Made by a program: the position numbers and the translations under genes. From Candidatus Bathyarchaeota archaeon (GTDB taxonomy: Archaea > Thermoproteota > Bathyarchaeia > 40CM-2-53-6): a stretch of 23,133 nucleotides of DNA. Shown piece by piece: positions 3,524-21,023 of this stretch (positions are counted from its first letter, which is position 1; every line of letters begins with the position of its first letter). The stretch is from the NCBI GenBank assembly GCA_963833125.1, contig CAWHWX010000025.1, positions 1 to 23,133 of the forward strand. Reading direction: 5' to 3'. The notes beneath the pieces are model-generated. The model was not told where the DNA came from. It saw nothing but the letters and a program-made list of their open reading frames with translations, and ran no database searches.

Positions 3524-5035
3524 ATGCCCAAGCTTGCCGCAATCGATGTTGGTTCGAACGCGATGCGGCTCGCTATTGCGTCAGCTGATGATGATGGCCG
3601 AATTCACATAATCCAGACAGATCGCGAGGCTGTCCGCTTAGGTGAAGATGTATTCGCGAGTGGCGAGATATCCGATGCTCGCCTTGTTGAAGCGATGAAT
3701 GCGTTTCTCAAATTTCGGAAATTGATTAATCAGCATAATGTCAAGTCGGTGAGGGCAGTTGGGACCAGCGCGCTAAGGGAAGCTAGGAACCGAGAGTATT
3801 GCATTGGGCAAATTTCCAAGGTCACAGAGATAGCTATAGATGTAATCAGCCCAGAGGAGGAAGCTCGCCTAGTCTACGTAGCTGTATCAAGAACCCTTAG
3901 GCTTGAAGGAAAAGTTGCACTTCTCGTTGATGTTGGCGGCGGCAGCGTGGAGGTTAGCCTCGCAACGGAACGTGAGATAATTGCTACTGAGAGCTTCGGG
4001 ATTGGTACTGTAAGGCTACTACAAATGCTCGACCACCGGAAACGCGGAGACAGAGTTTTCCGGCAACTTGCCCGCGAATACATCAACGTTTCCGGAACCC
4101 GACTCAGGAAGGAAATTGGCGAACACGCCATAGATCTCTGCATCGCGACGGGAGGCAATGTTGAATCACTCGGAGATCTTCGCGTGCAATTGTGTGACGC
4201 CGACAGCGACACTTCAATTTCATTGGATGAACTCGACTCGATTCTCAAACAATTGCAATCAAGGTCGTACGAAGAAAGGGTCAAAGATTTCGGGCTTCGA
4301 CCCGACAGAGCTGACGTCATCATCCCAGCCATAATAGTGCTCCAAATTGTGGCGAAGGAGGCGAAGATTCAAGAAATCGAGATTCCTCGGGTTGGGGTCA
4401 GAGAAGGACTACTCATCGACATGGCACGGGGTTTAGGCCGCGACTCGGGTCCACCTGATAGAATTCAGCTCGTCACGTCGGCGAGGCTTTTGGGAAGAAA
4501 ATATGATTATGAGGCCGAACATGCACAAACTGTTGCAAGATTTGCTGTTGCTCTGTTTGACGCGACCAAGAAACTCCACAGATTAGGTACGACCGAACGA
4601 ACTTTCCTTGAGGTCGCCGCACTCCTTCACGACATAGGATATTACATTGGGACGTACAATCACCACAAGAATTCGTGGTATCTCATCAACGCATCACCAC
4701 TAGTAGGAGTGGATGACTCCGATAAGGGAATCATCGCCCTAGTAACCCGTTACCACAGTCGTTCCTTCCCCAAGCCGAGTCACAAGGAGTTTATGGATCT
4801 ACCGCCGAAACGACGGAGGACTGTTGTAAAGTTGGCCAGTATTCTTCGATTAGCGGAGGCGCTGGATCGTGAACACTCCGGTAGAATCGAAAGTGTGAAG
4901 GTCACGGTGAGGAAGAAGAAGGTAATCTTGTTGCTTAAAGGCAAGGGAGACTTATTGCTTGAAAGGTGGGCGTTGAATTACGGGTCTCGCCTCTTCGAGA
5001 AGACCTACAAGAAGAAGATAGTGATCACGATATGA
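3524..5035 (+). CDS. ppx: Ppx/GppA exopolyphosphatase with C-terminal HD domain
   Basis: Motifs AAIDVGSN, AVGTSALREA, EEARL, DVGGGSVE, GTVRL, RADVI and GVREG, plus the HD motif ALLHDIG. 503 aa. Confidence 0.95.
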   Translation: MPKLAAIDVGSNAMRLAIASADDDGRIHIIQTDREAVRLGEDVFASGEISDARLVEAMNAFLKFRKLINQHNVKSVRAVGTSALREARNREYCIGQISKVTEIAIDVISPEEEARLVYVAVSRTLRLEGKVALLVDVGGGSVEVSLATEREIIATESFGIGTVRLLQMLDHRKRGDRVFRQLAREYINVSGTRLRKEIGEHAIDLCIATGGNVESLGDLRVQLCDADSDTSISLDELDSILKQLQSRSYEERVKDFGLRPDRADVIIPAIIVLQIVAKEAKIQEIEIPRVGVREGLLIDMARGLGRDSGPPDRIQLVTSARLLGRKYDYEAEHAQTVARFAVALFDATKKLHRLGTTERTFLEVAALLHDIGYYIGTYNHHKNSWYLINASPLVGVDDSDKGIIALVTRYHSRSFPKPSHKEFMDLPPKRRRTVVKLASILRLAEALDREHSGRIESVKVTVRKKKVILLLKGKGDLLLERWALNYGSRLFEKTYKKKIVITI

Positions 5036-6615
5036 GTTCGTCAGAGCAGAACCCTCTGCCCGGAAAACTAATCGCAGTAGAAGGTATTGACGGGTCGGGA
5101 AAATCCACTCAGATCTATCTTCTCCGCCGATGGCTTGAGTTAGAACGCTACAAGGTTATTTTCACCGAATGGAATTCATCATCTCTGGTCAAGAAGGCGA
5201 CACGGAAGGGAAAGAAGAAACGCCTTCTGACGCCAACGACATTTTCTCTGATCCATTGTACTGACTTTGCAGACAGGTATGAGAGACAAATTCTGCCGTT
5301 GTTACGAGCCGGCTACCTTGTACTTGCCGACCGCTACGTATACACGGCGTTCGTTCGTGATGTGGTTCGTGGATGCGATGCGGAATGGGTAAGGAATCTA
5401 TACAGTTTCGCCCGACACCCAGACGTCACATTCTTCTTTGATGTCCCATTGGAGACGGCTCTCTCGCGGATTCTAGAAGGCCGCCCGGAGTTGAAGTATC
5501 ATGAGGCCGGCATGGACCTCGATCTGTCCCCCGATCCCTATGAAAGCTTCCGAAGATTTCAAGGTATGCTGAACAACGAATACCACAACATCGCCACGAA
5601 GTACAACTTCATAGTAATAGATGCAAGCCGCCCCCCCGACGATCAGCAACAATCAGTCCGCGATTTTGTTAACCAGCGAATAGATCTATCAAAACATAAG
5701 GCGAAGGGACCACTGCCGTTTCCACCTGGACTCCTCGCGGCTCGCTTCCCGGAACAGAAGTTTAAGAGTGCTCTAGGAGAGGCGCCTCAAGGGAAACCGC
5801 TGCAAACCGTGGCTCCCGCTAATGATGTGCTGACATTAGCGGATGCTGGAGACGTGACATTTCCATTCCAGATTAATGGGTCTGAAAAGCATTTCTTTGG
5901 CAAAGGTCTTCCTAAAGTCAACCTCGCACAACTCAAGGGAAAACTGCTCGTCGTCGAAGGGTCAGATGGATCTGGAAGATCTACACAGATCGATCTATTG
6001 CACAAACATCTGGAAGTTCTCGGCTATCCGACAATAGACGTCGGTCTAAAACGGTCACGTCTCGTATCCGGGAGTTGCAGGAAGCTCTTCTGGGGAATAC
6101 GCTAAGCCCTGTGACAATGACCCTCTTTTATACGACCGACTTTGCGGATCAGCTCGAGAATAACATCCTTCCCGCCCTGAAGGCTGGTTTCATAGTCCTT
6201 GCTGACCGCTACATCTACACGTTGATGGCCCGTGAAGTCGTCCGGGGGATGAGTAGGGAGTGGGTTCAGAAAATGTACAGTATTGCCTTGGTTCCCGATG
6301 CTGTATTCTACCTCGCTGTCAGCCCCCGCATTCTCGCGGAACGCAACCTCATGAAGAGCGGATTGCTCGACTTCTGGGAATCGGGAATGGACATTCGCCG
6401 TTCGGGGGACATGTACCAATGCTTCGTCGATTATCAACGAAAAATGCGCAGCAGAATTCCAACGCATGGCCTTGGACTACAAATTCGAAACCATTAACGG
6501 AAACAGATCCCCCCTGGCTATACACCGAGAACTGAGATCCAAGGTCGAAAAAGTTCTTTCCAGATTACCCCCGATTGAGACTCATCACGATAAGGAGCCT
6601 GCACCCAGCAGTTGA
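5032..6615 (+). CDS. Tandem thymidylate-kinase-fold fusion protein (~527 aa), probable family-3 polyphosphate kinase; two compensating indels at ~6071 and ~6450
   Basis: Domain 1 has VEGIDGSGKST and VLADRY. Domain 2 has VEGSDGSGRST and VLADRY. The ATG overlaps the ppx stop (ATGA 5032-5035). Restoring a G in GGG 6070-72 and removing one base at ~6450 gives LVSGELQEA...KMRAEFQRMALDYKFETINGNRSPLAIHRELRSKV, ending at TGA 6615 which overlaps the next TTG. Confidence 0.8.
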
Positions 6616-8302
6616 AAAAAAGAAAGAGTTCGATAAGAAAGAAACAGGTCCCGCAAACTCGCAGAGCCCCGACGCCGCGCAGATTGAGCCGCTCAAGAAG
6701 AATATTGCAAAATAAATCCCTGGTGATAGGTAAATCGAGGAAAAGGCAACCCAAACCCGGACGCGTTCGACAAAAGCCCTCCAAAAAACCAAAACCCAAA
6801 CCAAGACTGAGACCAAAAACAACACAGAAACCGAAACCGGATTTGAAACCTGTAAGGCCTGTCGCTCTCAAGAAAGCCCCCAAACGCACAGTCGCTGTGA
6901 AGGCACTCATTCGACGAACGTCCGGCGGGGGTAGGGACGTCCTGAATTTCATTATTCTAGCCCTAGACAAGCGATGGAACGATTACCTAGCAAGTTTGAA
7001 GCGCTATCAGCAGCTAGCTTCGGTTAAGAATGTCCACGATCTCCGCGTTAGCATTAGACGCCTCACCACAACCATAGATTTGATCGATAGATTCAATCCG
7101 GATAACGTAGTCCGGCAGGCTCGCGTCAAACTCAAGGACCAACTCCAAGAGCTAAGTGTTCTTCGAGACGTTCACATCGAAATGGTTAGGATGCGTGGTT
7201 TTCTGAAAGAACTACCCGAGACGAAGGAGTTCTACGACGAGCTACGTGACAAGGAAACCAAGTATCTAAAGTCCGCCGATAAGATCCCCTGGAAATCGGA
7301 TAGAAGATTCATTGAGAACGCCGTCAACAGAGCTAGGATTAGACTCAACGCCGGCGCGCCACTACTACGACAGAGAATTCTCGCAGAATAGTTGACGCCG
7401 CGTTAGACGTTTCTTTTGATAACTTGAGCAAGAAACTCGAAGATGTTACGCCCGCGGATTATGCCTCGATTCATAGAGTCCGGCTTGCCTTCAAGCCACT
7501 GCGGTATACAATCGAAATGCTGCAGCCAGTGGTGGGACTGGATAGCCGGCAGCTTAGAACCGCCACACTTCTCGCCCGACTAATGGGACAAATTCAGGAT
7601 CTCGAGGTTCTCATGAAAGATCTAGTTGAGTTCAGATGGAAAAAAGGAAATGTGCCTGGTGCGGTAGTAGAGATATGGTTGGACCTCGAACGACGGAAAA
7701 TGGAAGCGACCCAACGCTTTCTAAGATCTATTCCAAAATTCGGTAACATCTGGAAGCCAGTTATTCATGAACAAACAGGCGCAGCATCCTCAGCTTCCAA
7801 GACAATATTCATTCTTCGGCATGGGATAGCTGTTACTCGTGGCGATGCAGCTTACCCGTTGGATTCGGATCGACCTCTAACCATGAAGGGTATGAAGAGG
7901 CTTCGTCGGATCGCCAAAGGCTTGCGTCACTTGAATGTTCAGTTTGACTTGATCCTGACGAGCCCGTATAGGCGAGCTTTGGAGACGGCGTTCGTCGTCG
8001 GGCGCGAGTACGGAGTGGGACAGATAATTCAAACCTCACAGGCGCTTAGACCCGAGGTACTTCCGGAGGAAGCCATCAGAGCAGTGCAAGAGAAATACTC
8101 GCCGTGCCGGCGCTTGCTCTTGGTGGGACACGAACCTCAGCTGAGTGCGTTGATCTCAACCTTGACAACGGGAAGCGCAAGCGCGAGGCCAGTGCTTAAG
8201 AAGGGAAGCGTTTGCAAGCTTCAAGTAGAGAAATTGCAAATGGGTAAGTGCGCAACCCTGATCTGGCTGCTCACTCCAAGGCAACTGATCAACATCGCCT
8301 AA
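6612..8302 (+). CDS. sixA: Fusion of a basic N-terminal tail, a CHAD (polyphosphate-binding) domain and a SixA-type phosphohistidine phosphatase (~563 aa); one missing base at ~7351
   Basis: CHAD repeats are VHDLRVSIRRL/LSVLRDVHI and IHRVRLAFKPLRY/MGQIQDLEV. SixA motifs are RHG, DSDRPLT, TSPYRRALETA, LVGHEP and LIWLLTP. Adding a C at 7351-52 joins ORFs 6612-7391 and 7424-8302. Confidence 0.85.
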
Positions 8303-8311
8303 GACCGACAC

Positions 8312-8470
8312 TCACAAAGACGAAAGGACAAGGCTCAGATTGAAGTAGAGCCCAGCAAGGCTCGCTGGAGCCAAAACTCCTTTGCTCATAACTGTGGCGA
8401 AACCCCAGCAGGCCGCGGCGAGCACAATGAAAACAAAGATTCGCAAATTCCGCAGTGGCTTCGCTCTCAT
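8312..8470 (-). pseudogene. 52-aa remnant resembling an internally deleted EamA/DMT transporter
   Basis: MRAKPLRNLRIFVFIVLAAACWGFATVMSKGVLAPASLAGLYFNLSLVLSSL. The first helix resembles EamA TM1 (LAAACWG..V.SK) and the second resembles the ASxAG..NL segment. Confidence 0.5.
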
Positions 8471-8512
8471 TAGACTGTTTATCTGGGGCTTGGTAGCGGA
8501 TGAGGAGTTTCC

Positions 8513-8905
8513 CTAACCTTTCTTGAGCAATTCCATGATTTTGTTCTGAATCTCGCTTGCTATCTTCCTGACTTCCTCAATCTTCTTTCCCTTCGGGTCT
8601 TCGATGTGCCAATCTACGAGCTTCTTCTCCATCTGTTCAACCATGGGCTTAGGGCAGACTTCTTGGACGGAGCAACCCATAGTCACAATTAGGTCTGCTT
8701 CATTGATCATTTCTTCCGTAAGCATCTTCGGTTTACCAGGAAGAGGGATGTTCTTCTCTTGCATTACTTGAACGACGGTTGGGTTCACTTTCTCGGCTGG
8801 GACGGTTCCTGCGCTCGTCGCTTCTATTCCGTACGCCCTGCCGAAGGCTTCAGCCATCTGGCTTCTTCCTGCATTTTCCACGCAGACAAACAATACTTTT
8901 TTTAT
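8513..8905 (-). CDS. arsC: Arsenate reductase, LMW-PTPase fold
   Basis: CVENAGRSQMAEA P-loop, SAGT, TMGC..VCP and DW.IEDPKG. The frame extends to (ATA)KKVLFVC at 8905, and the first standard start is TTG 8893. Confidence 0.88.
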   Translation of the reverse strand: MKKVLFVCVENAGRSQMAEAFGRAYGIEATSAGTVPAEKVNPTVVQVMQEKNIPLPGKPKMLTEEMINEADLIVTMGCSVQEVCPKPMVEQMEKKLVDWHIEDPKGKKIEEVRKIASEIQNKIMELLKKG

Positions 8906-9324
8906 GATATTGACACCCCCACCAACCCGAATCCTTTATCGATCAGGTTGTGGACTCGGGAGTTCGCTATCTTGTAGAACACCCACTTGCCGTTTCGTCT
9001 TGAACTGAGAACTCCAGATCTTTCCAGTATTCCTAGATGGTGTGACGTCGTGGGTTGTGTCAGCTCAAGAGCCGCCATAACCTCACATGAGCATAATTCT
9101 TCGTCAGCGATTATCTTGAGCATTCGGAGCCTAGTGGCGTCCCCGAGGGCGGCGAAGAAATCCTCCAGACGTCGGAAACTTCCTTCATCTTCGCTGATTC
9201 TGGATTTCAACTGATTGATGCGTTCAGTCGGGGTACAACTTGTATCCACTAGACCGAGATTCACTAGGCGTTTCACCCTAGCCTGAGCGATGGTTTGACT
9301 CAACTTAATCAACAAAGGAACCAT
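8902..9324 (-). CDS. arsR: ArsR/SmtB family metalloid-sensing repressor
   Basis: Motifs ALGDATRLRML, ELCSCE (helix-3 CxC site), QPTTSHHLGIL and RRNGKWVFY. The exact start is uncertain. Confidence 0.92.
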   Translation of the reverse strand: MVPLLIKLSQTIAQARVKRLVNLGLVDTSCTPTERINQLKSRISEDEGSFRRLEDFFAALGDATRLRMLKIIADEELCSCEVMAALELTQPTTSHHLGILERSGVLSSRRNGKWVFYKIANSRVHNLIDKGFGLVGVSIS

Positions 9325-9344
9325 ACATTAACATTCTTAAATGT
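9325..9344. promoter_or_regulatory. Putative ArsR operator overlapping a TATA-like box in the 44-nt divergent arsR/arsM spacer
   Basis: ACATT (9325-29 and 9331-35) pairs with AATGT (9340-44). TTAAAT at 9337-42 lies about 27 nt upstream of the arsM ATG. Confidence 0.45.
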
Positions 9345-9368
9345 GTTGCCTTGATATACTTGGTGTGA

Positions 9369-10112
9369 ATGAACGTGAGTCTAAGTGAAGAACAAATCAA
9401 AAATGCAGTTAGGGAAAGGTATAGTCGATTAGCCGTACTGAATCAGACTTGCTGCGGAAATGAGGCTGAAAATGTCTGCTGCGGCTCATCAACCAAAGAG
9501 GCGGATCTTCCAAGTGAGGCGTTGAGCGTCCTTGCGAGCTGCGGAAGTCCTCTGGCATATGTGCAGGTTCATGAAGGTGAGACCATTCTGGACTTGGGTA
9601 GCGGTGGAGGCATTGACGTTTTCCGCGCATCAAAATTAGTAGGCGACAAGGGCAGGGTGATCGGCCTTGACGCGACACCTGAGATGATCTTCAGGGCACG
9701 TGAAACCGCTAAGAAGTATGATTACAGAAATGTTGAGTTTCGGCTTGGAGAAATCGAGCACATGCCGATTGAAAGCGATTCGGTGGATTTGGTTATCAGC
9801 AATTGCGTGCTAACCCTAGTTCCTGATAAGGGATTGGCGTTCAACGAGATTTACCGTGTTCTCAAACCTGGCGGTGGCATTTCCATATCGGATATGGTTG
9901 CGACTCAAGAAGCTAAGAAAGTGATCAAACCAGAAGAATGGGCAGCTTGCATTGCAGGAGCGGTTACCTTCAACGAATACAGCAGCATCCTAGAAGAAGT
10001 AGGCTTCGTTAACATTCATGGATCGGATGAATCCAACCCAATAAACGAGGAAATGACTTCGAAAGGACTCGATGTAAAAAGCGTGACATGGAAGGCTAGG
10101 AAACCCCTCTGA
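9369..10112 (+). CDS. arsM: Arsenite S-adenosylmethionine methyltransferase
   Basis: Motifs VRERY, SCGSP, LDLGSGGGID, EFRLGEIEHMP, ISNCV, PDK, EIYRVLKPGG and WAACIAGA, with N-terminal CC pairs. Confidence 0.93.
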   Translation: MNVSLSEEQIKNAVRERYSRLAVLNQTCCGNEAENVCCGSSTKEADLPSEALSVLASCGSPLAYVQVHEGETILDLGSGGGIDVFRASKLVGDKGRVIGLDATPEMIFRARETAKKYDYRNVEFRLGEIEHMPIESDSVDLVISNCVLTLVPDKGLAFNEIYRVLKPGGGISISDMVATQEAKKVIKPEEWAACIAGAVTFNEYSSILEEVGFVNIHGSDESNPINEEMTSKGLDVKSVTWKARKPL

Positions 10113-10155
10113 ACAAGTGCCGCCAGAGCACTAAACAAGAAGAGATCGGAAAGCT

Positions 10156-11256
10156 TTGGCAAAACAGCTTTCGCTCCTCGACAGATTCCTTGCAGTATGG
10201 ATTTTCCTAGCGATGGCCATCGGAGTAGCCGCAGGAGCTGTTTTTCCGCAACTCCCGAAGCTTCTTGAAACATTCAGCGTCGGCACGATTTCGGTTCCAA
10301 TCGCGGTTGGATTGCTCTGGATGATGTACCCACCGCTAGCACGCGTGAAGTATGAAGAGCTTCCGAAGGTGAAGAAGGCTTGGAAGATGTTCAGCGTTTC
10401 CCTATTCCAGAACTGGCTCGTAGGGCCGTTCCTGATGTTCGGTCTTGCATGGTTATTCTTGCCCGATCTGCCCGAATATCGAATAGGAATAATTATCGTC
10501 GGATTAGCGAGGTGCATTGCCATGGTCCTAGTGTGGAACATGTTGGCGGGAGGGGATAGCGAGTATGCAGCGGTCCTTGTGGCGCTTAACTCGATCTTCC
10601 AGGTTGCATTATACTCGGTTTACGCGTGGTTCTTTGTTACGTTGCTCTCGTCTTGGGTCGCCCATGGGTCGGGCGTAACGGTTGCGATCTCCATCTGGGA
10701 CATTGCCAAAACCGTCTTCATCTACCTAGGCGTTCCATTTATCGCCGGAATGCTCACCAGGTACGCGTTGGTGCGGAAGAAGGGGAAGGAGTGGTATGAT
10801 GGAAAGTTTGTGGAAAAGTTGAGTCCGACAGCATTGATAGGGTTACTCTTCACGATTGTGGTGATGTTTTCGTTGAAAGGTGGGTATATTCTGGCGTTGC
10901 CATGGGATGTTGTAAGAATCGCGATACCCCTCGTCAGCTACTTTCTCATCATGTTCACACTCTCATTCGTCATGTCCAAGGCTTGGAGATTTTCCTATCC
11001 TGAGACTGCAACGTTATCGTTCACAGCGGCGAGCAATAATTTCGAGCTTGCAATAGCGGTGGCAGTCGGAGTGTTCGGAATAAACTCGGGCGAAGCCTTC
11101 GCCGCGGTGATCGGGCCGCTGTTCGAAGTTCCGGTTCTGATCAGTCTCGTGAGCGTGGCATTATGGGCGAAGAAACACTACTTCCGGGAGTCGCAGCTCG
11201 AGTTGGCAACAATCGATGCAAGATCGATGAAACAAACGATGCCTACCAAAGACTAG
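10156..11256 (+). CDS. acr3: ACR3 family arsenite efflux transporter
   Basis: Motifs [44 protein letters not shown] and [10 protein letters not shown]. Multi-pass membrane protein. Confidence 0.96.
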
Positions 11257-11424
11257 CGTAACGTGAATATCCTACGAAAACATGCACCAAACAGAGTTCG
11301 TCCTGGGGAGTAGAACTTAAGAGAATTCAGCTGACTCTAGTCTACGGCGGTTAGTTCAATTTTCACGGTAATTGACCCTGTGAATTGCTATCCCTACTTG
11401 ACCCTGGCAGTTCTGAGGAGAACA

Positions 11425-11526
11425 ATGATTGTGGAATTACATATAGCATCAGGAGAGAAATGCTGCACGCTAAACGATGATGTGGTCAATTTGCTACGTG
11501 GGTTTGAGCAGACACCTGCGTCTTAA
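11425..11526 (+). CDS. Possible 33-aa peptide with a vicinal Cys pair
   Basis: GAGGAG lies just upstream of the ATG. Translation is MIVELHIASGEKCCTLNDDVVNLLRGFEQTPAS. Confidence 0.2.
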   Translation: MIVELHIASGEKCCTLNDDVVNLLRGFEQTPAS

Positions 11527-11572
11527 GAAAACTATTGACCAGGCAAATCATGGAACTGGGAACAGGAGCGAA

Positions 11573-12418
11573 TCATATGGGGACGGTGGGTTTCAATCTT
11601 GACGCGGTTCGGACTATGATGTTCAGCCCCAAGACTATCATCAGTAGTATGAAGGCTGCCCCCCAAGCGAAAGCATGCGCGTTCGGGTACGGGGAAGTTC
11701 CGAAGTCAAAGATAAGCACGGTCATAGTGGCTGTAGGATCGAAAACAGTATTCATCATGAATTGGCCGCCGAGAGCGGTGAAGAGTAGGGGAGCGGTTTC
11801 CCCCATGATTCGAGCAACAGCCAGAGCGATGCCTGTAACAATTCCGCTCTTAGCGCTCGACACGAGGATGTAGAGGAGCGTCTTTGACCTCGATATTCCG
11901 AGGGCCAAACCACCTTCCTTGATAGCAGAGGGCACCAGCCTCAGGGACTCATGTGTCGATATCGCGACAATAGGTATCATCATGAAACTCAACGCAATTC
12001 CCCCGGCGATGGCTGAAAATCTGTGTAAGGTGGCCACAACCAAAACATACACAACGATCCCCGTCACAATGGACGGAACGCCCGTCAGAACCTCCGCAAT
12101 CAGCCTAACATTCTTTGCAACTCTACCGGGGTATTCGGATAGATACGCCCCAGCGAAGAGTCCTATGGGTACACCAATCATAGATGCTATTCCGACCACT
12201 ACCAAGCTACCCTCTAACGCATTCAATATGCCTCCGCCACTTCCGCCGATTGGAGGAGTAACCTGTGTGAAAAAGCCGAGATTCAGCACGCTATATCCTA
12301 GGGTCGCAGTTTCGTAGAGAATCGAGGCAAGTGGGATTATCGGAATTAGAAAAGCAAGTGTGGCTAGAACCGTAAATAACCTGTTGCTAAACCGTCGTCC
12401 ACTCAGGGATTTAAACAT
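11573..12418 (-). CDS. pstA: Phosphate ABC transporter permease PstA
   Basis: Motifs GGGILNALEGS, GVPSIVTG, EGGLALG, ARIMGETAPLLFT and AWGAA. Confidence 0.95.
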   Translation of the reverse strand: MFKSLSGRRFSNRLFTVLATLAFLIPIIPLASILYETATLGYSVLNLGFFTQVTPPIGGSGGGILNALEGSLVVVGIASMIGVPIGLFAGAYLSEYPGRVAKNVRLIAEVLTGVPSIVTGIVVYVLVVATLHRFSAIAGGIALSFMMIPIVAISTHESLRLVPSAIKEGGLALGISRSKTLLYILVSSAKSGIVTGIALAVARIMGETAPLLFTALGGQFMMNTVFDPTATMTVLIFDFGTSPYPNAHAFAWGAAFILLMIVLGLNIIVRTASRLKPTVPI

Positions 12419-13385
12419 CCGTTGAACTCCCGGGATGGAAACTTAGTCTAGAAATTAATACTCGCCCTACTAAATTCATTAGAAATGCGATCGCGAAAAG
12501 AATCAGACCGAGCTCGAATAGAGCAGCGAGGTAAATGTTGTTGCCTGCTACTTCTGTGAACTCATTGGCGATCACACTTGGAATGGTTTCTGCAGGAAGG
12601 AAGAGTGACGGGGTGATTCTTGCGACGTTGCCGATGACCATTATGACCGCCATGGTCTCTCCGATGGCTCTACCCATTGCTAGAACGATACCCGCAATTA
12701 TGCCCGTGCTGGCATAAGGAATGACGGCCATTCGAATTGTCTCTAACCTGGTTCCACCCAATGCGACGCAAGCCTCTCGCTGACTACGCGGGACCGCCGC
12801 GACAACTTCCCGCATAACTGCTGACGCATAAGGGGTGATCATGATCGCCAAAATGAGACCGGCGGTGAGCATTCCGAGTCCATTTGTTTCACCCGAGAAT
12901 ATTGGAATGAATCCAAGTGAGCCTATAAGTCCTGGATCTATGTAATCTCTCATGAAGGGAACGAGGAAGAATAATCCCCACAGTCCATACACTACGCTGG
13001 GCACGGCAGCAAGCAGTTCAACTAGAAAGATCGAAGGAAGTCGTAGTTTGCTAGGAGCTAACTCTGATTGAAATAGGGCAACACCCAAGCTTATTGGAAC
13101 CGCAAATAACAAGGCAATCAACGTCGTGACTATTGATCCATATATTGCGGGGAGTGCTCCCAAGATTGGAGTTCCACCGCTGGGAGGATTCGGAATCCAT
13201 AAGGTACCAGTCAAAAAGCTGAAGCCCAGGGCTTGAATAGAGTCTAAGCTTCCAGCGTAAAGAGAATACACGGTAAGAGCGGCGATGACTGGAATCGCAA
13301 CCGCTGCAACAATTAGGACAAAGTGCAAAAAATCGTGGTGCCGTGACCTTTGGCGGGCACGGCTTTTTTCAAGTTGCTTTTGCAT
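12411..13385 (-). CDS. pstC: Phosphate ABC transporter permease PstC
   Basis: Motifs ELLAAVPSVVYGLWG, REACVALG, GRAIGETMAVIMVIGN and IANEFTE. Confidence 0.95.
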   Translation of the reverse strand: MQKQLEKSRARQRSRHHDFLHFVLIVAAVAIPVIAALTVYSLYAGSLDSIQALGFSFLTGTLWIPNPPSGGTPILGALPAIYGSIVTTLIALLFAVPISLGVALFQSELAPSKLRLPSIFLVELLAAVPSVVYGLWGLFFLVPFMRDYIDPGLIGSLGFIPIFSGETNGLGMLTAGLILAIMITPYASAVMREVVAAVPRSQREACVALGGTRLETIRMAVIPYASTGIIAGIVLAMGRAIGETMAVIMVIGNVARITPSLFLPAETIPSVIANEFTEVAGNNIYLAALFELGLILFAIAFLMNLVGRVLISRLSFHPGSSTDV

Positions 13386-13401
13386 TATACGTCGCTGGCT
13401 T

Positions 13402-14688
13402 CTATCCGGTCAGGAGGACTGTGCCTTGATAGTTGAGAGTCATCAGTAATTGTTCGTCAGCTGCAACAACGTTTGCTGGGAGTGGTACGTAGTCCAATGG
13501 CATTGAATACTGCTGTCCATCGTGGATTGCCCACCAAAGGAAGTGTACTAGGGCTTGGGCCTTGGCGAGAGTTGTGCTAGGGTTTGCGGACAAGTCTTTG
13601 TAGACGAGTATGTAGGTGTAGGTTGAGATCGGATAGGATTGTGCTCCTGCAGCTTCTACTAGGTGTATTCTAAGATCGTTGGGGTTCGGCGTGCCCGTCG
13701 CGTTCTGAGCTGCGTAAAGGATTGTTTGTAGCGTTGGTACGATGAAATTGCCTGCTGGGTTCTTGACTGCGCCTACTCCGAGTTTGTTCTGGACCGCGTA
13801 GATAAGGTCAACATAGCCTAAGGCTCCGTTGGTGTTCGCAACCGTGCCCGCAACTCCCGAATTACCCTTTGAGCCAACGCCATAAGCCCCAAGCTTCGTA
13901 TCAACAGGCCAAGTCACTGAAGTGCTGTAACCAACCTGTGCTGCCCAGTTTGGGACGGCAACTGACAAGAAGTTCGTGAAGGCATATGTGGTTCCGCTGC
14001 CATCTGATCTATGCACGGCGGTGATGAAGCCGTTCGGTAATGCGACACCAGGATTGAGGGCCACGATGGCTGGGTCGTTCCATTTGACTATGTTTCCCAT
14101 GTAGATGTTAGCTATGACCTCTGGTGTGAAGTTCAGTGTGGCCGTGTTATTGACGCCCCATGCTTGCAAATTGTATGTAACGGCTACCCCACCAAGCGTC
14201 TCAGGGAAAAGAGTGATACCTGGCGCGGCCGCTAACTGTTGGTTATTTAAGGGAGCGTCGGAGGCACCAAAGTCGACTGTCTTTGCTGATATCTGTTGGA
14301 TTCCGCCGCCGCTACCAATGGGATTGTAGCTTATGGTAACTGCGGGGTATAGCTGGTTGTATGTGACCGTCCATTTCTGAAGTAATGGGGCGGGAAACGT
14401 GGCCCCCGCTCCAAGAAGCGAGACGGGCGTCGTTGGTTGGTATCCTGCTACAGAAGACGTTGCTGACGCCATAGAGGTTTCGGTCATGGTTGCTGAAGTC
14501 ATCACCGATGACGCTGACGACATCATCGACGATTCAGAAGACATTACTGATGTTGCTGACATGCTCTGAGATGTGCTACTGTTCATTGTCGTGAAGTAGT
14601 ATCCTCCTGCAACTGCCGCCAGTATGACGACAACAAGAGCTACTATTCCGACATTACGCTTGTTATTCTTGCTCGACATGCGAATCAT
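13402..14688 (-). CDS. pstS: Phosphate ABC transporter substrate-binding protein PstS, membrane-anchored with a Ser/Thr/Met-rich stalk (start could be 14679, 14688 or 14697)
   Basis: Motifs GAGATFPAP, GSGGG, DFGASD, HRSDGSGTT, GNSGVA and YPISTYTY, with an N-terminal hydrophobic helix. Confidence 0.96.
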   Translation of the reverse strand: MIRMSSKNNKRNVGIVALVVVILAAVAGGYYFTTMNSSTSQSMSATSVMSSESSMMSSASSVMTSATMTETSMASATSSVAGYQPTTPVSLLGAGATFPAPLLQKWTVTYNQLYPAVTISYNPIGSGGGIQQISAKTVDFGASDAPLNNQQLAAAPGITLFPETLGGVAVTYNLQAWGVNNTATLNFTPEVIANIYMGNIVKWNDPAIVALNPGVALPNGFITAVHRSDGSGTTYAFTNFLSVAVPNWAAQVGYSTSVTWPVDTKLGAYGVGSKGNSGVAGTVANTNGALGYVDLIYAVQNKLGVGAVKNPAGNFIVPTLQTILYAAQNATGTPNPNDLRIHLVEAAGAQSYPISTYTYILVYKDLSANPSTTLAKAQALVHFLWWAIHDGQQYSMPLDYVPLPANVVAADEQLLMTLNYQGTVLLTG

Positions 14689-14756
14689 CGAACGCACGTA
14701 GCGGCCTATTCTTATTTAGCGAAAACGCATTGTGAACATGTGTGTGCACCACGATC

Positions 14757-14771
14757 TATATGATTCATATA
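14757..14771. promoter_or_regulatory. Perfect 7-1-7 palindrome between divergent pstS and pstB
   Basis: TATATGA-T-TCATATA. Confidence 0.5.
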
Positions 14772-14823
14772 ACTCGTATTCAATTACTCAATCATCACAG
14801 TAATCGATGGTCGGTAACTAATC

Positions 14824-15654
14824 ATGACTTCAGAACTCTTAACGGAGTTGGGCAGTGCACAGGTAGCCGACAAGAGTGTTATTGATATGTCTAACTTAAA
14901 GGAAAAAATGCAGGTAGCCAGCCTCAGCGCTGGATTTGGCCGAAAAAAAGTCTTGGATGACATTTCAATATCGTTTAAGGAAAATACAGTCACGGCGATA
15001 ATCGGTCCCTCTGGGTGTGGGAAGTCCACATTCATCCGTTGCCTAAACAGAATGCATGAGGTCACACCAGATGCGTGGACCAACGGCCACATAATCCTGG
15101 ACGGCGACGACATTCTCGACCCCTCCATGGACCCCGTCGTAGTCCGACGAAGGATAGGGATGGTATTCCAAAAGCCAAACCCATTCCCAACCATGTCAAT
15201 ATACGATAACGTGGCGGCAGGCCTTCGACTGAACGGAGTTCGCAATCACAAGGTTATCGCTGAGAAGGTTGAAGAAAATCTCAGAAAATCTTTCCTTTGG
15301 GACGAGATCGGTGACAGGATCAAAGAATCCGGAACAAGCATTTCAGGTGGACAACAACAGAGACTATGCATCGCACGAACCTTGGCGGTTGAACCAGAAG
15401 TAATTCTCATGGACGAACCATGCTCAGCGCTCGATCCCATCGCAACTGCAAAGATCGAGGAACTCATAACTAAACTGAAGACCACCTACACAGTAATCGT
15501 TGTAACGCATAATATGCAACAGGCAGCACGCATCTCCGACCTTACTGGATTCCTGTACCTAGGCAGGCTCATCGAGTATGGACCGACGACGGAGATATTT
15601 CAGAATCCCCACAACGAACTCACGGAGCGCTACATCAGTGGAAAGTTCGGGTGA
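14824..15654 (+). CDS. pstB: Phosphate ABC transporter ATPase PstB
   Basis: Motifs [53 protein letters not shown] and YISGKFG. Confidence 0.97.
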
Positions 15655-15660
15655 AATTCA

Positions 15661-16287
15661 GTGCCGCGGCTCATGGATATGGGAGAAGAACGGCTCTCGA
15701 ATGCCATCGTGGACATGGCAAACCTAGCTCAAGACTCAGTAGTCAAGGCCATAGAAGCCTACGAGAAGGGGCAAAAAATCACCGACACAGCGCGTAAGAG
15801 GGCAGCTCAGCTCTCGCAGTTAAGCGCGGAAGTTGAGGAACTCGGCGTCGATCTCTTGGCGGGTTATCAACCAGTAGCCACAGATTTACGTTTCATTAAA
15901 TCCTGTCTTGAAATTGCTTATGGTTTTTCACGGTTCGGCAGATACGCCTTCGACATCGCACTAGTTCTAGAAACCTATGGAGACTTGTCTATTTGTGACA
16001 AATCAGTCGTTCACGACTTAAGTGAGAAAGTCACCGGCATGATCGAACGAAGTATCCAATCGTTCAGGACTCGCGACACGGAACTCGCTCGGTCATTACG
16101 AAAAGACGACGATGAGGTTGACAAAGTGTACTACAAGTACACCGCCGCGATGGCCACCGATAAGTCCGCATCAGTTCGATGCGCCCTCGCATCTACCTTG
16201 GTGTTACGGTATCTGGAGAGAATTGCTGATCACGCCTGTTACATCGGAGACTCCGTTGTCTACATTGTAACTGGATCGAAGGCCTGA
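15661..16287 (+). CDS. phoU: PhoU phosphate-signalling protein
   Basis: Motifs YQPVATDLR, DDDEVD and RYLERIADHA..I. It lies directly after pstB. Confidence 0.93.
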   Translation: MPRLMDMGEERLSNAIVDMANLAQDSVVKAIEAYEKGQKITDTARKRAAQLSQLSAEVEELGVDLLAGYQPVATDLRFIKSCLEIAYGFSRFGRYAFDIALVLETYGDLSICDKSVVHDLSEKVTGMIERSIQSFRTRDTELARSLRKDDDEVDKVYYKYTAAMATDKSASVRCALASTLVLRYLERIADHACYIGDSVVYIVTGSKA

Positions 16288-16291
16288 GACC

Positions 16292-17410
16292 ATGAAAGTG
16301 GATACACAGGATCCAAAGAAGGAGACAGAGGAAGAGCAATCTCAGCCTGAGGATCGGTATGTTCGACGGGTACAGGTCACGGGCCGCGGGTCCTACATAG
16401 TATCCCTGCCGAAACCTTGGGTCCAGGAAGCAGGGCTGAGAAAGGGCGGTAGGGTTGAATTTAGTAAGCAGGAAAATTGGGGCCTCACCCTTACACCATT
16501 CGGCAGCACGAAGTACGATGACGAACGCACCCGATGCGTCATGTCACTTAATTCCAATATTGACCCGGATGCTCTAACCAGAATGATCATCTCACTCTAC
16601 GTTGCTGGGTATTCGACGATTGAGATTAGGTCGAAGGCAGGAAACCTCTCATCTAAGATTCGAGACACGATTCGTGATGTTGCGAGAGGTAAGCTCGTGG
16701 GCACGGAGTTGGTTACTGAATCTGCCCAGAGCGCAACCCTGCAGGTGCTCTTAAGCTACCCTCAATTGCTCGTACCGGACGCTCTGAGAAGAATGCTTTC
16801 AATTCTAAACGCGATGCAACAAGATTCAATGCAGGCCCTTTCAAGACTGGACAAGGACTTAGCAAATCAGGTTGTCAAGATTGACGATGAGATCGACAGG
16901 TTCAGCCTGTACGTAATCAGGCAACTAAAATGGGCCGTAAAACACCCCACCCTACTCTCTAGAATCGGTTTATCCTCGCCCGTGGAATGCCTAGGATATA
17001 GGATCATCAGCAAGAGCGTTGAGCGTTCTGCAGATCATGCCGCAAGGATCGGAGTGAACGTACTTCTACTGCAGCAGGCACCTGGGGCATCGTTATTCAA
17101 GGACGCAAATGCGCTAAGCCAGCAATCGTCAAGAATGATGGAGACTTCGCTGCGAGCTTTGTTCGCCAGCGATTACAAACTTGCCGAAAGCGTGCTTTTT
17201 GAAGGGGCGAAAGTTACTGATCTCGAATCGAAACTGGTTGAGAGGTTACTTAAGGAGAAGATTCCAGCGGGCGACCTCTCCGCAATGCGCTTAATCTCGG
17301 AGAGCCTGAGAAGAATCGGCGAATATGCAACCGACGTTGCGGAAGTCGTCCTGAATTCAACTATTCAAAAAATGTTGGACCAATCGGACGGTATCGAGGC
17401 CCAGCCATAG
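16292..17410 (+). CDS. phoU: Archaeal phosphate uptake regulator (N-terminal AbrB/MazE DNA-binding domain plus PhoU repeats)
   Basis: RRVQVTGRGSYIVSLPKPWV is AbrB-like, followed by ISLYVAGY, DDEIDRF, ERSADHA and RRIGEYATDVAE. Confidence 0.9.
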   Translation: MKVDTQDPKKETEEEQSQPEDRYVRRVQVTGRGSYIVSLPKPWVQEAGLRKGGRVEFSKQENWGLTLTPFGSTKYDDERTRCVMSLNSNIDPDALTRMIISLYVAGYSTIEIRSKAGNLSSKIRDTIRDVARGKLVGTELVTESAQSATLQVLLSYPQLLVPDALRRMLSILNAMQQDSMQALSRLDKDLANQVVKIDDEIDRFSLYVIRQLKWAVKHPTLLSRIGLSSPVECLGYRIISKSVERSADHAARIGVNVLLLQQAPGASLFKDANALSQQSSRMMETSLRALFASDYKLAESVLFEGAKVTDLESKLVERLLKEKIPAGDLSAMRLISESLRRIGEYATDVAEVVLNSTIQKMLDQSDGIEAQP

Positions 17411-17424
17411 AGTGCACGTTCGCA

Positions 17425-17613
17425 CTAATCGGATACCGAGACGACATGGATTCTGGGTCGAAAGATCGCTCTTGCGGTGATATTGGCCGCATAGCCTCCA
17501 TGCAGACCGCAGAATTCCTCACAGGATTCAGCGACCTCAACATCCGTATACCCGAACCCGCAAAGCTCGCAGACAAAGATGATCCCATATCTACTATGTC
17601 TTCGATCAACCAA
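17425..17613 (-). CDS. Small Cys/His-rich putative zinc-binding protein (62 aa)
   Basis: CELCGFGY....AESCEEFCGLH. An SD GGTGA lies 6 nt upstream of the TTG. Confidence 0.65.
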   Translation of the reverse strand: MVDRRHSRYGIIFVCELCGFGYTDVEVAESCEEFCGLHGGYAANITARAIFRPRIHVVSVSD

Positions 17614-17630
17614 TCTGTTTCACCAAGCTG

Positions 17631-17789
17631 TCATACCGCGGCTAGCGGGACGAGATCCTCCCTCATGTAGAATCCCTTGAAACCGCAATTGTCGCATTTC
17701 GCTCCAATCGGTGAATCACCGTCATCATAGTACATGTTGAGGCTTAGGAGTCCACACTTCGGGCACTCGGATCCGACCTCTTTCTCCAT
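17631..17789 (-). CDS. CPxCG-type zinc-ribbon microprotein (52 aa, absent from the ORF track)
   Basis: MEKEVGSECPKCGLLSLNMYYDDGDSPIGAKCDNCGFKGFYMREDLVPLAAV gives C-x2-C-x19-C-x2-C. Confidence 0.75.
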   Translation of the reverse strand: MEKEVGSECPKCGLLSLNMYYDDGDSPIGAKCDNCGFKGFYMREDLVPLAAV

Positions 17790-17819
17790 CGGGCCAACCA
17801 TCCGATTGTGGTATACTAC

Positions 17820-17900
17820 TTACTCCGCGAACCAGGCGTCGCCTTCAGAAGGCGCAACTTCGGATTCGAGGTTCACGTGTTTTTTCCTTGTCCGTGTCAT
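17820..17900 (-). CDS. Possible 26-aa peptide heading the microprotein cluster
   Basis: ATG..TAA encoding MTRTRKKHVNLESEVAPSEGDAWFAE, co-oriented and 30 nt upstream of the zinc-ribbon ORF. Confidence 0.3.
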   Translation of the reverse strand: MTRTRKKHVNLESEVAPSEGDAWFAE

Positions 17901-18169
17901 TTTTTCGCCACGGTAAATACGTTGTTCCAGGGATTTAGCAGGTTTCCTCGTAATTCATTGCAGTAACATGATTTCCCATAATTCATGGTACCGAAACTTG
18001 ATGTTGTGCGGCGGGCCAGCAATCCACCTATAACTTGGTAATCAAGGGGTGTTGATTTGAGCGCTTAATTGGGTCGGCTTAAGCGTCTGCTTGGTTATGT
18101 CAAAACTTCCCTTGGAATCTATATTTTAGTCGCACAGCTCAACGTCGTGAGAAAAGCACCTAGAACTGC

Positions 18170-18406
18170 CTAAGAAAGCCGAAGACTAGAAATCGATTGT
18201 CTTTCAGGAGTTCCCGGACTGAATATGTGTTCAGGGTTGTGGATTCCGCAGCATTCGCATGATGACTGAACCGTTCCCCGACACTTCTCATGGTCATTCG
18301 ATAGACATGAAGGGCAGATGCCTGTCCAATCGTTGCATTGGTCGCCTAGTTGGGTTGACATGGTCAGTGGAAATATGTCAGTGGAGGTCAAATTTGTTCC
18401 CTGCAT
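18170..18406 (-). CDS. Small Cys/His-rich protein (78 aa, or 63 aa from ATG 18361)
   Basis: QC..WTGICPSC..DHEKC...SCECCGIH..EH holds 7 Cys and 3 His in about 37 residues. Confidence 0.5.
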   Translation of the reverse strand: MQGTNLTSTDIFPLTMSTQLGDQCNDWTGICPSCLSNDHEKCRGTVQSSCECCGIHNPEHIFSPGTPERQSISSLRLS

Positions 18407-18624
18407 GAATTCCGTGAGGTGTTGTTACTCACATTCCGAAGCTACATCTCAAGTCGGGTCAGAATCATAGCCATGCCACGCTAATGCTACGGGGTGAGTA
18501 ACGCCCCGTCTACGCAACTGAGCCCATAAACTGCAACCGCAAGCCAAAATGCGACATTTAACAGAACCTCTTATCCGACGGAACTTTACAGCAACAATTG
18601 CGTCCATCCGACAGAGACTTGACG

Positions 18625-19980
18625 TTACCGAAAAAAGGTAACGGATCGTAAGCGGACGATTAACCGGTGTTCTTCTTCTCGCAGTCGGCGGGAAGACAGG
18701 ACTAACGCTGCTAACCCAACTACTAGGCCGACGATTACAGATTCGATTGGAAAACCCGCAGATCGGTAGGCCGCTCCCTGTGCTCGCACTCGTCGATGTC
18801 ATTGATGTCGAGGCTGAGGAAGTGGTAACTGTTGGGGGTTGGGTTGGTACGAAGAGCAATCCCTTAGGGCTTTGGAACACGTTACTCAAGGGAGTTATCT
18901 TTCCGGTAGACAAGTCGAGGGTGCCCACGAGAGGGTTGGCGTTGTCATTAGGTTCCCCTACAAACACCGTACCGGCTGGCCACCCGGCCGTGTTGAGGGC
19001 TTGGATTGCGTTCGCTGCGCTGTCGACGACGTAGAGCGTTCCTTGATTCGCGGGTTGCGACTGCAAGACCGTCGATCGGAGGGACATTGCCAGGCTTGTT
19101 GTCGCTGAGGTTCAGAACATTCAGAACGGTAAGCGTGGGGTTAGTTCCGCTGAGTGACGCGGAATATGATCTGGCCGTCGGCTTGGCTGATAGTCGCGAG
19201 GTCTCCAGCAAACATGGGGCTTTCCGACGGCATGATGAAGTTTGTATCAGGGTCGGTGAGGCCGAGTTTAACGTTCGCACCAGTGGTGACATTCATAGCC
19301 ATACCATTGTTGTAGAAGAGTGCCGTGAGGTTGGCGGTGTGAGTCGAGTTGTCGAGCGTGACGAGATAGTCCGTGTCCTGAGTAGTGTCATTTGGGTTGG
19401 AGTGAATCACGTAAATTTGGTCTCCACTCACGGCAATGCTATCTGTTCCTCCGTTCCCCGGAAACTGCGGGGTCGGGACTGTACATGAATCTAATCACTG
19501 TTCGCGTGGCAGGTTCTATCAAGTTGAAGGCTGAGTAATCGTCTTCGTTGACGGTCGCAATCAACCGACCCCTCGCAGGGTCGGCGATTAAGCCGTCACA
19601 CTTGCCGGCCACGGATACATTTTCAACTAACGTACCTGTTGACGGGTCGTATCCTGCTACGGTACACAATGTCGGTCCTCCGGAATGACCGGCTGTGCCG
19701 TTTGGCATGATCCCGTTTTGGAAGGCGGTCCAAATGAGGGCCGCACCGCCGTCCAAGCCGGGGATTGCTAGTAATGTGATATCATCCGGTCCTTTCGAGC
19801 CCGCTGGCGGTGAAGAGACAAAGGCGTGCTCGGTAGGGAACTCGGCTGGGCCAGGGTCGTTGATCCAGGGAACATTAGACTTAGAGTTAGAGCGCAGAGG
19901 AAAGTAATGAGGCAAATATATCCTAATGTCTTGCACCGACTGAACGAACTCATGGGATGTCGGTCTTGTTGGGCGACCAT
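18625..19980 (-). CDS. Secreted/surface beta-rich protein with Ser/Thr linker and PGF-CTERM-like tail (~450 aa), broken by five single-base indels
   Basis: Pieces join in order: signal peptide (19980) / ~19830 / GPDDI..GKCDGL..ATVNED / ~19457 / NGGTDSI..LTDPD..SQADGQIIF / ~19161 / ASLSG..PPIDGLAVAT / ~19052 / GTLYVVD..SPKGLLFVP..TTSSASTS / ~18760 / AGFPIESVIVGLVVGLAALVLSSRRLR. Confidence 0.72.
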
Positions 19981-20146
19981 TTAACGCCCTTCAATGGAGA
20001 ACATGTGAGGGTATGGTACACGACATATCCGTAGTGAAGGACTGAGAAGTGAAACTGACTGATTGAACAGTTCTTCATGCGGTCCGCTTACGGGGCAATC
20101 GCTGACGTTACCCTATTTAGTAATGAAAATGCCCGTAAGCCTGATG

Positions 20147-20356
20147 TTACTTTTTCTTTCGCAACCGGCGTTCTAGGTCGGCTACACGTTTCTCCAGCTT
20201 AACGATTCGTTGCGCATTTTTCTTCGATTCTCGGTTAATATCCGTGCTCAATTTCCTAGCGTGCTGATCTAGCTTCGTCGCAAACGCTTTAGCAGCCTGT
20301 TCCTGCCTCTGTTCGATTTGGCTGAGATGATCGCGCAGTTCCTTGAACTTACCCAT
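20147..20356 (-). CDS. Small coiled-coil hypothetical protein (69 aa; alternative GTG start 20371)
   Basis: Heptad pattern IVKLEKRVADLERRL, with a purine-rich GAGTGAGG upstream. Confidence 0.6.
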   Translation of the reverse strand: MGKFKELRDHLSQIEQRQEQAAKAFATKLDQHARKLSTDINRESKKNAQRIVKLEKRVADLERRLRKKK

Positions 20357-20702
20357 GTCGCAGAGCCTCACTCATAATACAGCAATCAAGTGCTATAAGG
20401 CATTAGAATTAAGCGAAACGACCATCCTGTATCTCGTTCACTTCCTGAACTATGAAGCGTATAGAGAGTCCTAGCGCCACACGATTCACCGCCAACACAT
20501 TTTTCTCATCCTCTTGGCTATTGTGAAGATGTGAAACAATCGTGAGCGACCAACCTATCTCAAAGAAGTTACACTGGATGGAAGGTCAAGTCTTCCTACC
20601 CTACAGCAAGAAGATCATTGGCTTCAGTCGAATCGGCCCACACATAACAGCGGAATCAACCAAAAGTGACCCAAAACATCGATCCATGGAGGTTTTGAAT
20701 TG

Positions 20703-20825
20703 ATGCCCTGGTTGTATCCTGAACTCGACCATCCGCACATGCTGAATGAGGAGACGGTACCAGAAGGATACAGACGTTACGCCGGTCGGAGGGCCTGGAC
20801 CCTTCCAGTTACTTCCAGACAATAA
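20703..20825 (+). CDS. Possible 40-aa microprotein
   Basis: GGAGGT at 20688-93, with a TGATG overlap to upstream ORF 20542-20703. Translation is MPWLYPELDHPHMLNEETVPEGYRRYAGRRAWTLPVTSRQ. Confidence 0.35.
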   Translation: MPWLYPELDHPHMLNEETVPEGYRRYAGRRAWTLPVTSRQ

Positions 20826-21023
20826 AGCAACACCCCTCTCTTTCGAATAATCAAGGAATCGAATCTGCCGGCGGAGGATTCGAGTCGTCATGGAAACCGA
20901 TCTGGCGGCTTCTTAGTAATCTCCGACACTAGTGCGACTAGTTCTTGTGTGTGGGCCTGGTGGTGCCCACCCAAACGCCTGCCTTATGAAACAGTTAGCC
21001 ACTAGCCAAGCCGGGAAAACGAA

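Follow-up and report, generated by a model that had tools for sequence, protein, structure and literature searches.

The stretch of DNA considered here (the window; 23,133 nucleotides) is the whole of contig C25 of a Candidatus Bathyarchaeota archaeon genome (assembly GCA_963833125.1; here G000), which comprises 39 contigs and is 87.8% complete, with an estimated contamination of 7%. Between positions 3524 and 8302 of its forward strand, the list of open reading frames (ORFs) and the Pfam matches locate three consecutive genes: ppx, a gene for two kinase domains of the thymidylate kinase (TMPK) fold, and a gene that joins a basic tail to a CHAD and a SixA-type domain. The subject of this study is the polyphosphate (polyP) module that these genes appear to form. 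A first-pass annotation, made from the sequence alone, had described the genes as joined by overlaps of four nucleotides, and both overlaps are real: an ATGA at 5032-5035 holds the ppx stop codon and the ATG start of the kinase gene, and a TTGA at 6612-6615 holds the kinase stop codon and the TTG start of the third gene.

The first gene (3524-5035) is an intact ORF of 503 residues, coding for a long-form exopolyphosphatase with domains I and II of the Ppx/GppA family followed by the HD-like domain III. Both features by which a Ppx/GppA protein is recognized are present, PF02541 (Ppx-GppA) with 168.6 bits and domain III, PF21447 (Ppx-GppA_III/HD), with 97.9 bits. As the NCBIfam exopolyphosphatase model TIGR03706 gave 220 bits, under its cut-off of 307, the protein may have either Ppx or GppA specificity. 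A TTTAAG-like box about 21-27 nucleotides 5' of the ppx ATG, spotted by eye, is a candidate archaeal promoter. Of the multi-domain fusions announced in the first-pass annotation, those in the second and third gene are genuine, while its 'Ppx-HD' protein simply has the ordinary long Ppx/GppA architecture.

The second gene (5032-6615, forward strand) codes for 527 residues if it is read through two indels of one nucleotide. Pfam finds two Thymidylate_kin domains within one reading frame, which is intact in the orthologues of two public records, L016 and L017. With the NCBIfam dTMP kinase model TIGR00041 (cut-off 83.25) the kinase reaches 156 bits. The N-terminal domain K1 (5062-5688) carries a Walker A motif with its lysine, a DRY motif, and a conserved basic patch. 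The C-terminal domain K2 (5920-6567), which is interrupted by the indels at about 6068 and 6450, has an arginine in place of the Walker A lysine, keeps the DRY motif and does not share the basic patch. Between them lies a linker (5716-5880) that is predicted to be disordered: in the L016 orthologue, residues 229-283 have a predicted local distance difference test score (pLDDT) under 50. The linker is only 54% identical between L016 and L017. An AlphaFold2 model based on 35 fused sequences shows two TMPK folds at pLDDT above 90, with a mean pLDDT of 82.8 and a predicted template modelling score (pTM) of 0.80.

The third gene (6612-8302, forward strand) has a TTG start and codes for 563 residues if read through a single indel of one nucleotide. 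Its N-terminal tail (6612-6947) is polycationic: of its 112 residues 37.5% are lysine or arginine, 1.8% aspartate or glutamate, and 13% proline. It is followed by a helical, polyP-binding CHAD domain (6960-7648), recovered as two fragments of 35.1 and 30.5 bits (PF05235, cut-off 25.6), and by a SixA-type histidine phosphatase domain (7805-8278; His_Phos_1, 38.8 bits), whose RHG motif is present in the window translation. In intact orthologues the CHAD domain reaches 63.8-72.9 bits. Both PF05235 and PF00300 are found in the orthologues from L017 (563 residues, intact) and from the related genome G016 (a frame of 603 residues), and the former scores 78.8 bits against the sixA model TIGR00249 (cut-off 74.5). 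Among 97 homologues 95 carry both domains, and those with names are proteins from metagenome-assembled genomes (MAGs) of Bathyarchaeia. The tail is at least 30 residues long in 50 of the 97 (median 89 residues; median lysine plus arginine 25%, aspartate plus glutamate 4%) and at most 15 residues long in 45, where the gene may in some cases have been called too short. Over the region coding for the basic tail, the reverse strand has an antisense ORF of 150 residues (6518-6970), which most likely is no gene and merely arises from the low complexity of the sequence.

The same set of functions is known from a published system. In Sulfolobus acidocaldarius two 'thymidylate kinases', Saci_2019 (cPPK3, catalytic) and Saci_2020 (rPPK3, regulatory), make up the heteromeric, reversible polyphosphate kinase PPK3 (J Biol Chem 2026, PMC12995831), in an operon of sixA (saci_2017), ppx (saci_2018), cPPK3 (saci_2019), rPPK3 (saci_2020), and a CHAD gene (saci_2021) (PMC12995831; bioRxiv preprint 2024, 10.1101/2024.08.28.610084). 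With this operon already in print, the earlier suggestion that the module is a candidate for an undescribed system falls. According to the text of the paper, the Sulfolobus member showed polyphosphate kinase (PPK) activity and lacked dTMP kinase (dTMPK) activity, its equilibrium favours ATP formation from polyP, and a third, true dTMPK is encoded elsewhere in the genome (PMC12995831). The same text describes a positively charged cleft conserved in cPPK3 only and a replacement of the arginine of the DRX motif in rPPK3s; it states that most genomes with PPK3 are without both PPK1 and PPK2, and it leaves the role of the SixA partner open (PMC12995831).

Residues 11-219 of K1 align end to end with STK_15430 of S. 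tokodaii (2plr/5h70) at 223 bits and an E value of 7.6e-65, compared to about 1e-13 for true TMPKs; for K2, only weak TMPK matches of about 1e-10 were obtained. STK_15430 (PDB 2plr, 4nzy, 4rzx, 5h70), deposited as a 'probable thymidylate kinase', is a stand-alone protein of 213 residues without an r-domain and is named as a cPPK3 homologue in the text of PMC12995831. In a FastTree phylogeny of 216 K1, K2, and tmk rows, for which local supports only were calculated, all 109 K1-type rows share one side of a branch with a support of 99, among them the 14 rows of the Sulfolobaceae-type family f36. The K2-type rows and the genome's own tmk are placed on the opposite side of this branch. The basic patch is conserved across all K1 groups and absent from K2; it may coincide with the cleft residues of the published enzyme, which are given in supplementary figures S15/S16 of that paper. 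Arginine for the Walker A lysine and the lack of the patch are each seen in 90% or more of the K2 rows in the alignment. As judged from sequence, K1 is an orthologue of the catalytic subunit cPPK3, outside the clade of housekeeping dTMPKs, and K2 groups with rPPK3 as the counterpart of the regulatory subunit. The TMPK-fold gene beside ppx is thus very probably a polyphosphate kinase.

The window and the S. acidocaldarius cluster share the same five functions in one co-directional arrangement, with K1 and K2 on the cPPK3 and rPPK3 sides of the tree, respectively, and a separate housekeeping dTMPK elsewhere in the genome. All the operon partners of PPK3, namely ppx, CHAD, and SixA, are at the locus and translationally coupled. 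Phosphate-transport genes, which the text of PMC12995831 lists among PPK3 neighbours, adjoin the cluster. In contrast to the Sulfolobus operon, the c- and r-subunits of the window are joined by a disordered linker into one polypeptide, CHAD and SixA form another with a polycationic tail, and SixA stands at the end of the operon and not at its start. Moreover, the Ppx of the window is the long form with domain III, whereas the Sulfolobaceae-type protein aligns to it only up to about residue 290; the DRX arginine is retained in K2; a PPK2 is encoded in the genome as well; and the host class, Bathyarchaeia, is scored 0 for PPK3 in Data S1 of PMC12995831. Taken together, we consider it highly likely that the locus is a PPK3-type polyphosphate operon that has been compacted from five genes into three. 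The proposal of the first-pass annotation that the three genes form one polyP module is supported. Its guess at the function of the kinase was right, while the rationale, the fold shared with PPK2, was loose.

Going from the homology, domain order, motifs, and conservation that are observed directly to enzyme activity, oligomeric state, granule association, and the target of SixA, we infer the following mechanism. K1 would reversibly move phosphate between polyP and ADP/ATP. K2, which a disordered linker of some 55-75 residues connects to K1, would stabilize or activate K1 and probably dimerize. The product of ppx would hydrolyse polyP from its ends, and the CHAD domain and polycationic tail of the third protein would bind polyP and so place and hold the SixA-type phosphatase on the polymer.

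The conservation of the gene order was followed in the best 80 of the 451 stretches in the genome_contigs collection that encode a relative, with partner genes counted by BLAST, so that the counts are lower bounds. A ppx gene is found within the locus in 56, sixA in 30, and CHAD in 18 of the 80, and 63 show linkage to at least one of the three. The gene order, whose absence from relatives would have counted against the first-pass annotation, is conserved. In 29 of the 80 loci K1 is immediately preceded by ppx, and 14 loci of family f36 show the order SixA-PPX-K1-K2. K1 and K2 share one frame in two of the 80 loci, L016 and L017, and are encoded by two genes in the other 78. In these split PPK3 pairs from bacteria and archaea, including pairs of the Nitrososphaeraceae type, K1 is 53-76% and K2 56-67% identical to the window, and the order is often ppx-K1-K2-(CHAD)-(SixA). 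The text of PMC12995831 speaks of 'a few bacteria', whereas a relative is encoded in 451 stretches of genome_contigs.

In a search of 5.8 billion proteins, 32 of the 120 database matches listed extend over 95% or more of the fused query. The proteins P0001-P0018 share 67-96% identity with this query, and other fused groups, which include a 'dTMP kinase' of Alicyclobacillus tolerans, share 37-58%. On the tree, well-supported branches force at least three changes between split and fused forms, and the linker lengths differ between the fused groups (about 65-75, 48-52, 27-40, and 17-18 residues); hence the c-r fusion happened repeatedly. A comparable single chain, in which an inactive P-loop kinase domain is paired with an active one, is known from two-domain class II PPK2 (e.g. 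PA3455 of P. aeruginosa, as given in the text of PMC12995831), which belongs to the PPK2 family and not to the dTMPK superfamily and has the inactive domain at the N-terminus, whereas the r-like domain of the window is C-terminal. A single-chain c-r PPK3 was not found described in the literature; the text of PMC12995831 contains 'fused' 0 times and 'fusion' 2 times and mentions a single 'possible gene fusion', which may belong to one of the present fused clades, and its supplementary figures S15, S16, and S19 and tables S2-S3 could bear on this point. Public data also hold other K1-type fusions (P0227, P0238, P0241, P0299, P0310, P0357, P0329, P0356, P0350, P0354), in which K1-K2 is joined to Ppx domain III/HD (650-696 residues) or K1 occurs as SPX-K1-DUF2252, MFS-K1-DUF2252, inorganic pyrophosphatase-K1, and NUDIX-K1. 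Such partners tie the kinase clade to phosphate or polyP metabolism.

As assembled, the second gene is out of frame from about 6068 to about 6450 and the third is shifted at about 7350. At the first break (~6068) one base is missing relative to G016, L016, and L017; at the second (~6450) one base is extra relative to all five copies compared; at the third (~7350) one base is missing relative to G016, L017, and two further copies of the locus in the same genome, on contigs C19 (232 kb; 127659-132568) and C37 (708-5600), which are about 90-92% identical to the window at the DNA level. The locus is intact in L016 (ppx 503 and kinase 527 residues) and in L017 (ppx 502, kinase 526, and CHAD-SixA 563 residues). 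Public contigs were aligned over positions 5000-8300 of the window. An X1 contig, otherwise without a difference over 6346-6525, does not have the extra base at 6450 (4.1 of 4.1 depth); coverage by X1 reaches this site but not 6068 or 7350. The X2 and X3 contigs, about 90% alike to the window, have an extra base at 6070/6071 and 7350/7351 in every contig covering those places, and the other X2 indels either compensate each other in pairs (5519/5522, 5774/5778) or have a length divisible by three (18 nucleotides at 6656, 3 nucleotides at 6930). The copies on C19 and C37 and the relative G016 are broken at other sites than the window, many of them CG-rich. The clustering of one-nucleotide indels in CG-rich (CGCG-like) contexts would fit a systematic error of long-read basecalling, possibly at methylated motifs, and the three frame breaks are most likely assembly errors. 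The correction of indels that the first-pass annotation had called for (-1 at ~6068, +1 at ~6450, -1 at ~7350) is hence justified by intact relatives and by public contigs without the breaks. The three copies of this region of 5-12 kb appear to be related strains or species binned together, in line with the contamination estimate of 7%.

Several points weigh against a PPK3-type operon. The locus is present in three diverged versions in an assembly with an estimated contamination of 7%, same-strain evidence against a frame break exists for 6450 only (X1, at 4.1x depth), and at 6068 and 7350 the evidence comes from relatives that are about 90% alike. The activity would be extrapolated from one Sulfolobus enzyme, and its c-type relatives are about 50% identical to K1. 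Contig C16 encodes a PPK2 (TIGR03709, 386.6 bits, cut-off 247.2). It was correctly stated that the window has neither PPK1 nor PPK2, but with this PPK2 the module is not the only route to polyP in the genome; PPK1 (PF02503) was not found in the genome at its 87.8% completeness, which is not proof of absence. Finally, the K2 domains of the window's clade do not show the replacement of the DRX arginine expected of a regulatory subunit. The residue is kept in the DRY motif of this clade and in 14 archaeal K2 rows of families f21 and f65, and 90% or more of the 78 K2 rows that come from the best 80 related loci keep it too; in the Sulfolobaceae-type family f36 it is a glycine. Because K2 keeps this arginine and a near-complete P-loop, the split into a catalytic and a regulatory part may differ here. 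This makes the label of a typical rPPK3 less secure and leaves the membership in the family as it is.

The same residues lend some weight to the alternative that both halves are catalytic, with two active sites per chain, for example for two successive phosphorylations from AMP to ADP to ATP. K2 combines the DRY motif with a near-canonical P-loop in the window's clade and in the archaeal f21/f65 group, as do 90% or more of the 78 K2 rows, while the r-subunit of the Sulfolobaceae type has lost both. Against two active sites, K2 groups with the r-type proteins in the tree, and in at least 90% of the K2 rows the Walker A lysine is replaced by arginine and the K1 basic patch is absent. In P-loop NTPases, the exchange of the Walker A lysine for arginine usually cripples phosphoryl transfer. 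The basic patch, in turn, is a candidate for the polyP cleft that the text of PMC12995831 assigns to cPPK3 only. Two active sites per chain therefore seem quite improbable. A wider scheme, in which the r-half has a working DRX arginine and provides a second nucleotide site of this kind, the polycation-CHAD part anchors SixA, and synthesis, use, and trimming of polyP take place together on the granule surface, is unlikely; if it were true, the repeated c-r fusions would mark a selectable gain of function and not mere gene tidying.

A decaying cluster of pseudogenes in this strain, with real frameshifts and ppx as the only functional gene, is very unlikely. It would account for three frame breaks in two of the three genes as assembled, for the fact that the copies on C19, C37, and G016 are broken as well, at other places, and for the patchy occurrence of the module, which 7 of the 59 genomes of the family have if G000 is counted. 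The sites of the breaks, however, differ between copies and often lie in CG-rich contexts, an unrelated pyruvate-kinase-like gene of the window is also broken, and the substitutions between copies leave long frames open. In addition, an otherwise identical contig is without the insertion at 6450, and relatives restore 6068 and 7350, with their other indels keeping the frame.

Least credible of all is a tandem kinase for dTMP or another nucleoside monophosphate, without a role in polyP metabolism and next to ppx, CHAD, and SixA by coincidence: it would agree with the Thymidylate_kin matches, the TIGR00041 score, and the source name 'dTMP kinase' of homologues, but the genome has its own canonical tmk on contig C4 (an ORF of 211 residues; TIGR00041 98.9 bits, cut-off 83.25), K1 belongs to the clade whose Sulfolobus member had PPK and not dTMPK activity (text of PMC12995831), ppx, CHAD, or SixA are linked in 63 of 80 loci, and Ppx domain III, NUDIX, inorganic pyrophosphatase, and SPX domains all occur as fusion partners of K1-type domains. 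The first-pass annotation, which would have given up its proposal if this kinase were the only dTMPK of the genome, is not contradicted here, owing to the tmk on C4, and it had rightly foreseen the mislabelling as dTMP kinase that is seen both in the names of homologues and in the TIGR00041 score of the kinase.

A phosphate-uptake cluster (pstSCAB-phoU) lies beside the PPK3-type operon at 11573-17410. It consists of two Pst permease genes (11573-13385, reverse strand), pstS (13402-14697, reverse), pstB (14824-15654, forward), phoU (15661-16287, forward), and a gene for a PhoU protein with an AbrB/MazE-type domain (16292-17410, forward). In 8 of the 80 related loci, PstB-like genes lie no more than 5 kb from the kinase pair. 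This neighbourhood fits a role in phosphate and energy buffering, as part of a phosphate-homeostasis island. Between the operon and the pst genes is an arsenic-resistance island (8513-11256) with ArsC of the low-molecular-weight phosphatase type (8513-8893, reverse), ArsR (8902-9324, reverse), an S-adenosylmethionine (SAM) methyltransferase (9369-10112, forward), and a transporter of the ACR3/SBF family (10156-11256, forward). The stretch 8302-11565 is absent from C19 and C37, pointing to an insertion or a strain difference. On the 5' side of ppx, a pyruvate-kinase-like gene (154-2005; NCBIfam PRK14725, 543 bits, under the cut-off of 642) is likewise frameshifted, near 1690, and is also found upstream in L016 and G016 (617 residues there). 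A role as a conserved ATP-regenerating partner was considered for it and rejected, as only 2 of the 80 loci have such a gene close to the two kinase domains. From 17410 to 21024 the window holds only short ORFs (18449-19087, 19006-19488, 19439-19936) without Pfam matches.

The Bathyarchaeia are an abundant uncultured lineage of sediments and soils. The nearest named record to the locus, L016, is a Candidatus Bathyarchaeia MAG. In the family of the window, a match at an E value of 1e-30 or better is present in the seven genomes mentioned above. The fused form occurs in G000, G016, G463, and G464, all of genus g1, i.e. in 3 of the 22 other genomes of this genus, and a split form, 58-59% identical, in G009, G430, and G436. 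The G009 copy was considered as the ancestral split form within the genus and dropped; it is on a contig of 2,970 bp with 62% GC, against about 50%, and may be a contaminant. In a sample of 401 genomes of the phylum, 29 have K1-type matches (14 of 15 in f36, 12 of 56 in f21, two in f65, and G000); none was found in this sample among 5 genomes of the same order or 43 genomes of the same class from families f11-f15. A search of sequencing runs gave a best run that shares only 0.16 of the sampled words.

The L017 record, the closest relative that is not identical, bears the title 'Candidatus Acidiferrales bacterium'. The genes on its flanks, among them that for CTP synthase, share 65-83% identity with genes of G000. 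The record has a GC content of 50%, and its sequence recurs as G463:C136, assigned to the genus of the window in the genome collection. A recent acidobacterial donor was hence dropped, and L017 is probably a mislabelled archaeal contig. The nearest split relatives of K1 in the tree bear bacterial labels, in agreement with the repeated transfer of PPK3 from bacteria to archaea proposed in PMC12995831.

New in our analysis is a single-chain PPK3 together with a tailed CHAD-SixA protein, both from a lineage to which PPK3 had so far not been attributed. Apart from this the biology follows the published system, and the surprise for a specialist is modest. PPK3 explains how archaea without PPK1 and PPK2 make polyP, a long-standing gap. 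In Data S1 of PMC12995831 all 23 Bathyarchaeota genomes listed are scored 0/0/0 for PPK1, PPK2, and PPK3, and the lineage is absent from the main text of that paper, so that the range of PPK3 is extended here to Bathyarchaeia, which had been scored without all three kinases. For the public databases it matters that pipelines label these kinases 'dTMP kinase', and for ATP-regeneration biocatalysis the single-chain form may ease expression. The natural c-r fusions, with at least three origins, are Rosetta-stone evidence that both subunits work as one unit. The tailed CHAD-SixA fusion argues that the SixA partner acts at the polymer and provides a handle on the question of its role.

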